Shown: in pieces, positions 18,898 through 23,452 of the stretch
How the letters are laid out: each line of letters starts with the position of its first letter
How positions within the stretch are numbered: the stretch's first letter is position 1
NCBI GenBank assembly: GCA_034226945.1
Contig: CP120454.1
Span: 1,054,001-1,118,000, forward strand
Origin: Picochlorum sp. SENEW3
Taxonomy: Eukaryota
Reading direction: 5' to 3'
DNA: 64,000 nt
Position numbers and translations under genes: made by a program
The notes under the pieces: model-generated
What the model was told of the DNA's origin: nothing
The model's input: only the letters and a program-made list of their open reading frames with translations
The model's database searches: none

Positions 18898-20714
18898 TCA
18901 AGATTCAGTCATCATCATCTTCTTCTTCTTCTTTTTCACATCCTTCTTCTTCTTCTTCGTCTTTGTCTCGAGACTGCTAAGCTCATCGACAGCATTGGAA
19001 AAGGTGAGCATTCTCTTCCGGTTTTGGTTGGCAAGAGGCATTTGCTTGAGTGCACTTCCCTTTGGCTTTGACGTGGGTGGCGTTCTGACATTTTCTGGGA
19101 AGGGAGGTTGTCCGATTCGCCTGACTAAGTTCTTCTTTAGGCTGAATCGGACACTTTTACGCCTTGTTTTCTGTGAGGGTTCATCGTCAATGTGGTGCGG
19201 TGTGGCATCGATTCCATTCTCATGACTACCAGATGCAGGTTCAGAGCCTGTATTACTCTTGGCCTTCTTCTTCTTCTTCTTCTTCTCTTGTGATTTGGGC
19301 GCCTCATCTATTGTCTTTTCAACCTGATCTTCTTCTTCTTTTTTTTCTTCTGGAGCCTCCTGGACGATGCGCACAGGAATCTCGTCCTCCTTCTTGGCTG
19401 CCTTCTTCTTACTCTTTTTCACCACTGTCTTGTTCACATTCGTCTTCTTCTTAGCATGCTTGAAGGCCTGTTCTACATCAGACGACGCAAGATACAAGTA
19501 CTCCCTATTCTTTGACTTTGTCTTCTTATTTGATCCTGCAGAATGACGAAAAAAGGAATGTGTCGTTCAGTCTGTACGAGTATTTCCTGACAATGCAGAG
19601 AACACAAGGTATAATAATAACAACCAAACTATTCATGTCTGGAGATATTCAGCTGTAAAACGCATCAGTTTGCACCTTGTCCACAGATAGTTTTCTCCAT
19701 AGCGACACAAAACATTATAATACAATCAAGAGACAATTGCATGGCATCACATACCAAGGGAAAACAGTTCCTGTGCTAAAGATTGGACATCACACATGGA
19801 ACCAAACGGCTCAGCATTCGATTCAACACGTTGAGCAATCTCTGCGAACACATCCGAGTAAATCTTTTTCAATAGAACCTTATTCTGACTCGCACGTAAT
19901 CCCTCTATGAAAGGATCGAGAACAGCCCTCAGTGCATCATGAGAAGGGCGAGCTCCTGCCTCTACCATTTTTTCCAATTCGCTGACAACAACAGAGCACA
20001 CATGATACGCAAGTCCAACACCGAGATCATTTGCATAGGGAAGTAGTACTACAGTATCTTTCCATACAGTCGAGTACGAACGTATCAGATCGACATTCCT
20101 ACAGGTCAATGAAAACAAAATGTCACTGGTATCACCACCAGCAGCAGCACAAAACCTCATCCTACACATACCAGTGTGACTGATCAAACAATTCCAAAGA
20201 CGCTGCATAAAACTTTCTAACCAGCATCATGTACTTGTCCATACGATGTTGATCTATACCCGGCCATTCTCGTTTCATCGTCACAACAAAGGCAGAAAAG
20301 TACACAAAGGCCACGGTTGGCGACAAGGTAGTCACCAGACCACTCAAACGATCCGCTAATACCGTCTACATATATGCATAGTACAGTCATTAGTTCATTG
20401 AAATCCAAAAGACCTGTAAACAGGATCGATGCGCTTCCATTTCCAGGACATGCATGACACATGTTACCCACCTGAACAGAAACTAAATCACTATGCCAGA
20501 AACAGTAATACAATGCTTTCCAAAGCCTAAGAATTTCATTTTGAGAAGCATCGGGGTGAGAATTGAGCCATTGCGTTAATACAAGAAGCCCTTTTTCTCG
20601 AGTGTCTCTATCTGTTGAGCCAAGAGCTCGAGCGAGTCCAGAGTCACTTGTGGCGGCCGTGTCCTCCAGAAGAGGCTTTGATCTCTTCTTCTTTTCTCTC
20701 TGCTTCTTTGCCAT
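18898..20714 (-). CDS. RRP1: Ribosomal RNA processing protein 1 / Nop52 (exons 20714-20472, 20365-20172, 20098-19755, 19535-18898)
   Basis: LWKALYYCFWHSD, REWPGIDQHRMDKYMMLVR; Lys-rich tail with KSVRFSLKKN. Confidence 0.9.
19633..19701 (-). ncRNA. Candidate box H/ACA snoRNA (single hairpin) in RRP1 intron 3, predicted to guide an 18S rRNA pseudouridine
   Basis: Lower stem UGGAGA/UCUCCA, pocket AAACUAU / CUGAAUA, upper stem CUGU.../...ACAG, ACA box 14 nt from the pocket top. The pocket is complementary to conserved 18S UCAG-U-U-AUAGUUU. Confidence 0.75.
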
Positions 20715-21111: not shown

Positions 21112-22818
21112 CTACACCTTTTTATCCTGTGTAGCAATGACAAATTCGGTCAGTAAAAAGCCAAATCCGCTGGCCAAGTAACATGCTGGGACGAGCAACA
21201 TGGCGTTCTGTAAGTCTGTCTTTGATGCAATCAATGCGACGGCCAAAGGCCCTAATCCTCCAATAACGTTTCTAATGCTTAAATGAACTGCGCTTCCTGT
21301 GGATCCCAGCCCTGGGGGAGAGACCTCTCTTACTGCAACAGCAGCTGGAGCTCTCCACGCTTCTGACAAGGCAAACCCAATCAACAGAGCTGCAAATGAT
21401 TGCTTATAATCTGGGGCGAGAATTGAGAGGGCAATACATGGAGCTGCTGCTATATTAGCGCCAGCAGTAATCCATCCTCTTCCACCGATTCTATTCAACC
21501 AATCACCCAGTATTCCAGCACCCACACCACCAATGAGTCCACCAACTGGAATCACAACAGCAAGAAGAGGAGCGTACGTCTCAGGCGATAGCTCATACAC
21601 GCGTTGATAAAATGTTGCTTGCCATGCAACCAGAGCCCAAGATCCAACATCGTTGAACGTCGATGCAATTGTGAGGGACAAGAAGGCAGGGTCACGGATG
21701 AGCACCTTGAGCTTGTCCATGCTTTCTGCCAACGATTGGGTGGTGGACATGTGTTCCGGAGCGGGCGCAACCAAAGCCTCTGATGACGTTGTTCGAGACA
21801 GAAACCTCGAGGATTTGATCGGATCTCCTAGAAACCCTTTATTTCTAGGCCTCGTTTCGTCAATTGTAAGCAAGCATAGGACAGCAATAACAATCCCTGG
21901 AGGCCCCAACCAAGACAGTAATTGCCTCCACGCTCCAAATGCCGATTCCAGAGCAACTCCCGCATCTCCAATATCTTGAGCATATGTAAAAATGGGAGAC
22001 ACAGCTGCATAATCACCCTGTGTATACATGATTGTGACAAGGGACAGGTCCACCTTGTCCAATGGGACCAATGTATATGCAATATCTAAATTCTCCATGA
22101 TACCCTGAGGCACCCCTAATTTTCCAGCAATAACAAGAGCTGCAAACGAAAAAGCTCTTCCCACATAAATAGCCGAATTATACACCGCCATTGCTGTTGT
22201 ACGACCTTTTGGAAACATTTCAGGAATGAGAGAGAAACAGATTGGGTTCTGGGTTGCCTGTGCAGCCGCAAATCCAATCCTCGCTGCAAGAAGCTCACCA
22301 AACCCAGACGCTTTTGATGCTAAAAGCGTCAACACACTCCACGCCATGATGCCAAAACTGAGCAGCCGTGGTCTATCAACTCTATCTGCCAAGAGCCCCA
22401 TGGGCACCAACGCGACCGCATATAATATCGTATACCCAGCGGTCAACAACGCTCCCTGACTATCTTGAAGATGCAAATCACTTGATATAATCGGTAGCAA
22501 AGCAGGTAATGCGAAACCCGTCGTTGAATGATGCAAGTATGCCACAGACAAAATCAGCAGTCCCCACACAGCACCAATGTTGGGACCCTTCTTTTCCTCC
22601 TCCTCCTCCCCAAACGGAACCTTTTCCACAGATTTCGAAAAATCAATTGGCACATAATCATTCTTCACCACCGCTGCTGCTTTCTTCCGTGGCCGCGGTT
22701 GCTGCGCTGCTGCCCTAACCTCGAGACCTCTGCAACCACGGTTGCCCCCCACTGCAGCGTTCAAAACAGCCACACGCCGTCTCGGAATACCCACCCATGT
22801 CCTCGACACCGAATCCAA
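21112..22818 (-). CDS. MFS transporter (Spinster-like), probable plastid transit peptide
   Basis: MGLLADRVDRPRLL (MFS motif A), ARIGFAAAQA, about 12 hydrophobic segments. Confidence 0.88.
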   Translation of the reverse strand: MDSVSRTWVGIPRRRVAVLNAAVGGNRGCRGLEVRAAAQQPRPRKKAAAVVKNDYVPIDFSKSVEKVPFGEEEEEKKGPNIGAVWGLLILSVAYLHHSTTGFALPALLPIISSDLHLQDSQGALLTAGYTILYAVALVPMGLLADRVDRPRLLSFGIMAWSVLTLLASKASGFGELLAARIGFAAAQATQNPICFSLIPEMFPKGRTTAMAVYNSAIYVGRAFSFAALVIAGKLGVPQGIMENLDIAYTLVPLDKVDLSLVTIMYTQGDYAAVSPIFTYAQDIGDAGVALESAFGAWRQLLSWLGPPGIVIAVLCLLTIDETRPRNKGFLGDPIKSSRFLSRTTSSEALVAPAPEHMSTTQSLAESMDKLKVLIRDPAFLSLTIASTFNDVGSWALVAWQATFYQRVYELSPETYAPLLAVVIPVGGLIGGVGAGILGDWLNRIGGRGWITAGANIAAAPCIALSILAPDYKQSFAALLIGFALSEAWRAPAAVAVREVSPPGLGSTGSAVHLSIRNVIGGLGPLAVALIASKTDLQNAMLLVPACYLASGFGFLLTEFVIATQDKKV

Positions 22819-23452
22819 CTGTATACATCAATTACTAATATCGTTTCACATGACTCTTGAATGAATTCAATCGCCTCAGCGGCGTCTCGGACATCTATCT
22901 ATTGATACACATGTGAAATTATAATGGCTAAACCCACACACCTTCATCCTCACTGGACTCCCATGATCCAATTCAACCACAACCATCAATTAGTTGTTTT
23001 AATACCCACGTAATGAATGCCTCAGGCAACAAATACGTCAAACATCAAGCCTCCTATGTTACAGCACAAATGACTCGCCGTAGTATCCTCGAATTCGATA
23101 CTACCCTAGGCGTAGCAGTATTATTATTATCCTATGAACATGTAAATAATACTTTTTAAAGAAAGCTATAGTGATGGCGCCGGATACCCTGATCATCCGA
23201 CAGATCTGCTTCCTCGTCCTTCCAATCTCAGTCTCGGCATGTAGTACTACCAGAGAGAGATGCACATCTTTCTCTCTTATTATTATATGAATACTACTAC
23301 AGAGCCATGTTTCGATTCACATATTACACACCAGAATCCCCTATATAAATATGTTTTCATAGGAGTATATACATAATAACGATACGTATGCACCATCCTT
23401 GAAAGGCAAAAATCAATCACACGTGGGTCAAACACCACACAGATGGAGTACA

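Follow-up and report, generated by a model that had tools for sequence, protein, structure and literature searches.

Uridine 111 of Arabidopsis 18S ribosomal RNA (rRNA) is a predicted pseudouridine that was mapped by Sun et al. (2019) and is assigned to the guide snoR100-2; it is equivalent to human U109, and a yeast site is absent from the table that lists it (Streit and Schleiff, 2021, Suppl. Table 3; PMC8351944). snoR100 is an H/ACA RNA that, according to a passage of PMC7464842, runs at ~160 nucleotides (nt) on northern blots and is accompanied by a shorter form, and a class of single-hairpin H/ACA-like RNAs is described for trypanosomatids in a passage of PMC2613932. Here we analyze a window of 64,000 nt from Picochlorum sp. 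SENEW3 (contig CP120454.1, positions 1,054,001–1,118,000; all coordinates below are those of the window, the whole stretch of DNA under study), in which the third intron of RRP1, also known as Nop52, very likely encodes a box H/ACA small nucleolar RNA (snoRNA) that is predicted to guide modification of the same 18S uridine, U111 in plant and U109 in human numbering. To our knowledge no one-hairpin H/ACA-like RNA is on record for green plants, the literature search having covered Picochlorum snoRNAs only; it found a single paper, on telomerase RNA, and a search for green-algal H/ACA catalogues found nothing usable.

The Picochlorum element has in common with snoR100 its target, 18S U111 (PMC8351944), and its H/ACA class, and the ~143 nt predicted for it are close to the ~160 nt given for snoR100 in the passage cited above (PMC7464842). 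The two differ in that the Picochlorum second hairpin has no target and in that no H/ACA model of Rfam matches the Picochlorum element (E ≤ 10). By analogy, the Picochlorum snoRNA should be the functional counterpart of snoR100 and have the same function. The guide or guides of human 18S pseudouridine 109 likewise share the conserved target position (table in PMC8351944).

Read on the minus strand from 19699 to 19633, the element consists of UGGAGA, AAACUAU, a 34-nt upper stem with its apical loop, CUGAAUA, UCUCCA, a G, and ACAUGA. In the unconstrained minimum free energy (MFE) fold of 19633–19701 (−14.2 kcal/mol), a 7+7 internal loop separates the 6-bp lower stem from an upper stem whose last base is 14 nt from the ACA (19652–19639). 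The intron and the parts of this first hairpin (hairpin 1) are as follows.

19536..19754, minus strand: RRP1 intron 3, 219 nt, GT..AG, from a spliced contig of sequencing run X2 and the exon joining of the Picochlorum sp. BPE23 protein P0114.
19694..19699, minus strand: 5′ strand of the lower stem, UGGAGA, paired in the MFE fold with 19640–19645 and covarying in the orthologous locus L018.
19687..19693, minus strand: 5′ pocket strand, AAACUAU, predicted to form seven Watson-Crick pairs with the AUAGUUU that follows the target U-N (18S 113–119).
19653..19686, minus strand: upper stem and apical loop, with three two-sided pair changes in the 7-bp stem base among four sequences.
19646..19652, minus strand: 3′ pocket strand, CUGAAUA, its first four bases predicted to form Watson-Crick pairs with UCAG 5′ of the target U (18S 107–110).
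19640..19645, minus strand: 3′ strand of the lower stem, UCUCCA, from the MFE fold and covariation.
19633..19638, minus strand: ACAUGA box, read as box H (ANANNA), with ANA at the same place in all five complete lineages.

The original prediction, made from the letters of the window, had described this hairpin with its stem-loop-stem geometry and an ACA at 14 nt, and both the sequence and the MFE fold bear it out exactly. Three hallmarks of the H/ACA class were found: a pocket hairpin (in the MFE fold, the folds of the orthologous lineages, and the covariation of the stem), two-sided rRNA pairing around an unpaired U-N on surrogate 18S genes, and a box H/ACA in the range of 14–16 nt below the pocket top.

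The target was scored on surrogate 18S genes taken from contaminant contigs in bacterial assemblies. The surrogates were fetched with a pattern joining an 18S 5′-end primer and the 16-mer of the finding under study, which gave at least 54 contigs, and three of them (L069, L074, and L038) were confirmed by Rfam as complete SSU_rRNA_eukarya. On these genes the pocket has a single 18S site with at least nine pairs, U111 in L069 and L074 and U112 in L038, where 4+7 pairs, all Watson-Crick, form on UCAG-UU-AUAGUUU and leave the U-U unpaired at the pocket top, as had been predicted. In a scan of 18S, 5.8S, and the available parts of 28S (the first 2,200–2,600 nt), the runner-up was a 4+5 site in 28S that includes G-U pairs, and of 3000 random 7+7 pockets that share the base composition of the intron, only 3 reached 11 Watson-Crick pairs anywhere. 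The pockets of the orthologous loci L001, L003, L006, L007, and L018 pick the same U by forming 4+6 or 4+7 pairs. We infer that the tabulated U111 is nucleotide 111 of L069, since the numbers agree and section 10 of PMC8351944 gives a length of 1808 nt for one Arabidopsis 18S variant; the tabulated equivalence with Arabidopsis U111 agrees with the earlier naming of human U109 as the target (PMC8351944, Suppl. Table 3), and for the yeast U110 named alongside it the table has no entry. In PMC6984369, ‘109’ occurs in the reference list only. The match predicts that a pseudouridine of the 18S 5′ domain common to plants (U111) and humans (U109) is present in these algae too.

Conservation among close relatives was assessed by aligning assembled contigs of four runs (X1, X2, X9, and X10) to 19400–19900 at a likeness of at least 80%. 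The most distant run, X10, has 47 substitutions and 23 gap letters over the 500 nt and a likeness below 90%. None of its listed differences falls within the 84 nt of 19618–19701, versus 20 in the remaining 135 nt of the intron, which also carry four indels; by part, the changes number 9/53 in the 5′ flank, 9/60 in 19558–19617, and 2/22 in the tail. These counts are of listed differences: 16 more exist, nine of them X10’s by count, and the ‘from_end’ values of the listed ones suggest that these probably lie near the ends of the stretch. The probability of zero changes in 84 nt is 1.4 × 10^−6 at the flank rate (20/135) and 0.011 at the listed exon rate. At the 5′ edge of the conserved block X2 differs at 19701 and X10 at 19702–19703. 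This pattern of substitution indicates that the hairpin block within 19618–19701 is under purifying selection.

Because the RRP1 protein diverges too fast to serve as a query for orthologues (its closest match outside the genus is 45% identical, and exon 3 matches only two proteins), the adjoining gene for a transporter of the major facilitator superfamily (MFS), which protein matches had pointed to as a conserved neighbor, was used instead. Scanning an alignment of the MFS protein (A1) against metagenome contigs gave 24 loci, 10 of which carry RRP1 downstream of MFS. Orthologous introns could be retrieved because the MFS-RRP1 synteny is kept across trebouxiophyte lineages. In six of the 10 RRP1-bearing loci the hairpin is present in the orthologous intron, after the exon ending in ...LF.LG: it is complete in L001, L003 (with a duplicate, L004), L007, and L018, and is cut by the contig end in L006, so that five trebouxiophyte lineages besides the window carry it. 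The contig of a further locus, L009, stops in RRP1 exon 1. Alignment of the orthologous intron, one of the checks proposed with the original prediction, thus finds hairpin and pocket conserved in five further lineages.

Within these introns the pocket is kept and the stem varies. All six lineages have the same AACUAU in the 5′ pocket strand, the CUGAA of the 3′ strand is identical wherever the region is present, and the upper-stem sequence is different in each. In an alignment of four sequences (A2), 95.7% of cells are paired versus 35–65% with slid partners, and three pairs show two-sided changes; the alignment has a covariation score of 0.359 versus 0.18 for shuffled alignments, and 4 of 500 shuffles reach it. 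The pocket hairpin is the unconstrained MFE fold in four of five lineages. A model built from A2 (R1) and run over 293,890 bases gave six matches. Besides the seeds and the duplicate L004, which made up five of these, it found L018, a sequence outside the seed set (37.5 bits, E = 1.4 × 10^−6) with a GC content of 0.70, in whose lower stem, AGGAGG/CCUCCU, two pairs are altered on both sides. R1 missed L007, which has an insertion of ~100 nt in its upper stem and was recognized by reading and by a loose pattern (AACTAT-gap-CTGA-gap-ANA). This pattern occurs eight times in the sequence set searched with R1: six occurrences are these introns and the other two lie in the window and lack the lower stem. 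Pocket fold, conservation, and covariation together support the predicted H/ACA-type pseudouridylation guide hairpin, and on this comparative evidence the deeply conserved, unannotated intronic element is real and very likely a guide RNA.

Two features of the upper stem may be recorded here. In L007 (5575–5685) the stem of the guide hairpin has grown to ~100 nt, a purine-rich arm, GGGAGGGGGAGAGAAG, pairing with a pyrimidine-rich arm, CUUCCUUCCUUCC, while pocket and box are retained. The motifs ACAA(A/G) and GCGUU, which go beyond pairing needs, occur inside the upper stem in the window (19660–19686), L003 (9665–9700), and L006 (3222–3262) and are missing in L001 and L018; they may reflect a protein contact or mere shared ancestry.

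How far the RNA extends beyond hairpin 1 depends first on the nature of the box that follows it. ANA stands at the same place, two nt past the lower stem, in all five complete lineages, and the spacing from pocket to box is 15 nt in L007 and 14 nt in the other four. The boxes are as follows.

Window: ACAUGA, fits ANANNA.
L001: AUACUA, fits ANANNA.
L018: ACAGCA, fits ANANNA.
L003: AGAGCG, misses the last A of ANANNA.
L007: ACAGUG, misses the last A of ANANNA.

A terminal ACA is nearly invariant, and variation at such a position is typical of an H box. Because the box varies as ACA, AUA, or AGA and fits ANANNA in three of five lineages, it is read as box H and not as a terminal ACA, a possibility that the original prediction had mentioned as its alternative and that is now favored. 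Downstream of it, a second hairpin and a further ACA can be drawn.

19565..19629, minus strand: putative hairpin 2, with an 8-bp lower stem, GUUUGGUU/GACUGAAC, and an AU-rich loop with (AUU)n, from the MFE fold between the boxes.
19561..19563, minus strand: putative 3′ ACA box, 1 nt past hairpin 2 and 25 nt before the 3′ splice site.
19558..19700, minus strand: predicted mature H/ACA snoRNA, ~143 nt, the 5′ end placed at the start of conservation and the 3′ end at ACA plus 3 nt.

The RNA is probably of this two-hairpin kind, with ACAUGA as the hinge box H, a degenerate, non-guide hairpin 2 (19629–19565), and a terminal ACA (19563–19561), ~143 nt in all. In the window the order is GUUUGGUU...GACUGAAC, G, ACA (19563–19561), CAU, and in all five lineages the segment after the box can fold as one hairpin that closes 0–3 nt before an ACA. 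When the 115 nt after the box were shuffled, the layout of box, hairpin, and ACA was matched in 40, 17, 21, 28, and 1 of 200 dinucleotide shuffles (window, L001, L003, L007, and L018, respectively; Fisher combined p = 0.004 over the five lineages). Hairpin 2 as rebuilt from X2 and X10 has the same architecture, at −15.8 and −14.0 kcal/mol versus −10.6 kcal/mol in the window, and so outlasts the 15% substitutions and the indels of these runs (eight substitutions and a 6-nt deletion); equally large random mutation sets of the same type perform as well in 1.8% (X2-like) and 8.7% (X10-like) of 3000 trials. The ACA at 19561–19563 has no listed change in X1, X2, X9, or X10, and X10 has changes flanking it at 19566 and 19559.

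Several results weigh against a second hairpin that belongs to the RNA, in addition to the two boxes that depart from ANANNA. The shuffles of the layout test take in the polypyrimidine tails, which favors the observed sequences. Compared with shuffles of its own composition, hairpin 2 has stability z-scores of +0.14, −1.54, −0.34, −0.9, and −1.76 (combined p = 0.054), and that of L007 is very weak. The distal 60 nt change in X10 at the neutral rate (9/60 versus 11/75 in the 5′ flank and tail together). Hairpin 2 has no two-sided pocket and no rRNA target in 18S, 5.8S, or partial 28S, in keeping with the earlier remark that no convincing second pocket follows. As a candidate guide it was rejected: a scan with two alternative pockets from the window and with the L001 and L018 loops gave only G-U-rich matches of 4+4 to 6+4 in GC-rich regions. 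The loop of hairpin 2 contains an (AUU)n microsatellite (19609–19620, minus strand), which is shorter by 3 nt in X2 and by 6 nt in X10.

The strongest competitor is a single-hairpin H/ACA guide of ~68 nt (~19700–19633) that ends 3 nt past the ACA of ACAUGA and is followed by ordinary intron, comparable to the H/ACA-like RNAs of trypanosomatids and Euglena or to archaeal guides with one hairpin, the reading to which the original prediction had given the lead. It would account for an ACA 14 nt from the pocket and then a UGA, and for a downstream hairpin that evolves at the intron rate, has neither pocket nor target, does not significantly exceed composition-matched shuffles in stability, and is very weak in L007. 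It fits less well with a box that is AUA in L001 and AGA in L003, which is H-like variation, with the hairpin-ACA layout in all five lineages, and with an architecture of hairpin 2 that survives in two relatives. The 14 nt past the box, moreover, are without listed change in X2 and X10 (chance p ~0.1), a two-hairpin RNA would occupy all but ~41 nt of the 175-nt intron of L001, and the Arabidopsis guide for the same site is of ~160 nt in the passage already cited (PMC7464842). On this balance a one-hairpin guide is unlikely and no longer leads. We give a similarly low probability to a functional RNA made up of the 5′ hairpin and the ANA box, a guide of ~70 nt, with hairpin 2 as a decaying or dispensable relic. 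If true, Viridiplantae would have their first one-hairpin H/ACA guide in this ~70-nt RNA, which would capture two-hairpin snoRNAs in the course of shrinking in compact genomes; knowledge of the H/ACA mechanism is otherwise unchanged.

The described classes can be set against both readings. Like canonical H/ACA snoRNAs, the element is intronic and has a pocket hairpin, two-armed pairing around an unpaired U-N, a box at 14 nt, and ANANNA in three of five lineages; unlike them, it has a 3′ hairpin that is weak, AU-rich, pocket-less, and fast-evolving, and in two lineages the box is ANANNG. As in the single-hairpin H/ACA RNAs of trypanosomatids (AGA box) and archaea, one guide hairpin would be enough for the predicted function, and in the AGACA of the window an AGA overlaps the box. 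In contrast to the trypanosomatid or Euglena type, which has its AGA box 3 nt from the 3′ end, the box is fixed across the lineages neither as AGA nor as ACA, and a downstream hairpin with an ACA can be drawn in all of them.

A third explanation holds that the intron contains, in place of a guide, a conserved structure regulating the splicing or expression of RRP1, such as one that mimics rRNA and binds a protein. The element is indeed bound to one intron of one ribosome-biogenesis gene across very divergent algae, and directly after ACAUGA (19626–19632, minus strand) stands AUAGUUU, which copies the 18S target arm and is fully complementary to the AAACUAU of the 5′ pocket, so that an alternative intramolecular pairing is possible. 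However, the letters conserved in single-stranded parts coincide exactly with the two arms that pair around a known pseudouridylation site, an ANA box stands at the canonical 14–15 nt, the self-complementary AUAGUUU is absent from L001, L003, L007, and L018, and introns of such genes commonly house snoRNAs. We therefore consider a regulatory structure very improbable. The AUAGUUU copy itself, which has no listed change in X2 or X10 and could compete with the 18S substrate by pairing within the RNA, is probably lineage-specific or a coincidence.

Against the assignment of the element to an H/ACA guide of any length stand, besides the use of surrogate 18S genes and the differences beyond those listed, three sets of results. 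The fold energy of hairpin 1 is unremarkable (z = −1.22; 26 of 200 shuffles fold as well), and the whole 151-nt stretch folds worse than its shuffles (z = +0.93). By the model R1 (E ≤ 10) and by the loose pattern, no hairpin was found in L012, L013, and L016, in which RRP1 is more distant. An Rfam search, another check proposed at the outset, went against the prediction: Rfam, which we take to include a model of snoR100, matched nothing in the 64-kb window at gathering score and gave no H/ACA family at E ≤ 10, where only weak box C/D matches appeared (four with 701 nt and two with 161 nt; sn2841 at E = 1.2 and snoR101 at E = 4.9). Energy by itself is insufficient, and the hairpin is taken to be beyond chance because of its conservation, covariation, and target specificity. 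A box C/D snoRNA, which calls for conserved C (RUGAUGA) and D (CUGA) boxes joined by a terminal stem, was tried as a candidate and rejected: relatives do not retain the UGAUGC-like motifs, one of which is in the apical loop and another close to the 5′ splice site, and the Rfam scores were treated as noise. A chance hairpin or an RNA of another class, such as a C/D snoRNA, can be dismissed in spite of the unremarkable MFE z-scores and the weak C/D matches, as it is contradicted by the conservation, the covariation, and the L018 match, by the lack of conservation of the C-box-like UGAUGC, and by C/D scores of 11–15 bits versus gathering scores of 40–45.

As a two-hairpin H/ACA snoRNA, the element would work as follows. 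By analogy with intronic snoRNAs elsewhere, intron 3 would be spliced, debranched, and trimmed by exonucleases to the part shielded by Cbf5, Nop10, Nhp2, and Gar1. The 5′ hairpin (19699–19640) would open its 7+7 pocket, the strands of which would pair with UCAG and AUAGUUU of 18S and keep the U-U free at the pocket top. That top would be 14 nt from the box, the geometry by which Cbf5 turns the first unpaired U into pseudouridine, and the U so converted would be position 111 in plant 18S numbering, human U109. The RNA would run on through the degenerate hairpin 2 to the terminal ACA. As judged from its sequence, such an RNA would add an unannotated, clearly functional snoRNA to Picochlorum and related trebouxiophytes.

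Introns of ribosome-biogenesis genes are a common home of snoRNAs, and the host gene could be defined in the window as follows.

18898..20714, minus strand: RRP1/Nop52 host gene, from Pfam PF05997 on the exon translations and the tblastn exon map.
~20714–20466, 20365–20165, ~20110–19755, and 19535–18898, minus strand: its four exons, from tblastn of P0114.

The reading frames on either side of the intron match PF05997 (Nop52/RRP1) in Pfam with E-values of 1.7 × 10^−11 and 9.2 × 10^−15, and exon 3 is 95% identical to P0114 (471 aa, annotated). Because tblastn of P0114 yields four exons, 19536–19754 is the third intron. A contig of X2 with a depth of 876 is missing 219 nt on the minus strand (19534/19754, GT..AG), and P0114 runs from ...LFSLG straight into the next exon at the same point as the intron 3 junction. 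An unspliced X2 contig (depth 35) crosses both exon junctions, exon contigs having depths of at least 876; these depths bear on splicing, not on a processed snoRNA. The spliced contig, P0114, and tblastn thus agree with the placement of the hairpin in RRP1 intron 3 (19536–19754, ~219 nt) in the original prediction.

The MFS gene (21112–22827) and RRP1 (18898–20714) are both on the minus strand, MFS first, and lie a few hundred bases apart. The MFS transporter shares 99% identity with an MMETSP transcript and 83% with a JGI ‘Picre1’ protein, and its remoter matches carry the names of Micractinium, Parachlorella, and Chlorella. Together with the P0114 match of exon 3, this places the window in Picochlorum, a trebouxiophyte green alga. 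Order and strand of the two genes are kept in L001, L003, L004, L006, L007, and L018, in which RRP1 identity is only 32–50%. The predicted snoRNA would thus have stayed in the same RRP1 intron while the host protein fell to 32–50% identity, and would provide a clean case of a long-lived pairing between a snoRNA and a ribosome-biogenesis host gene.

The retrieval of 18S genes gave a minor observation on public assemblies. At least 54 bacterial or archaeal assemblies (L025–L078) include short contigs that bear a eukaryotic, plant- or alga-like 18S 5′ end and are contaminants. In one of these, filed as a Nostoc assembly (L038, 5030–5516, minus strand), the 18S is split by a group I intron (RF00028, 101.8 bits), and the contig looks like a green-algal or fungal contaminant of a cyanobacterial culture.

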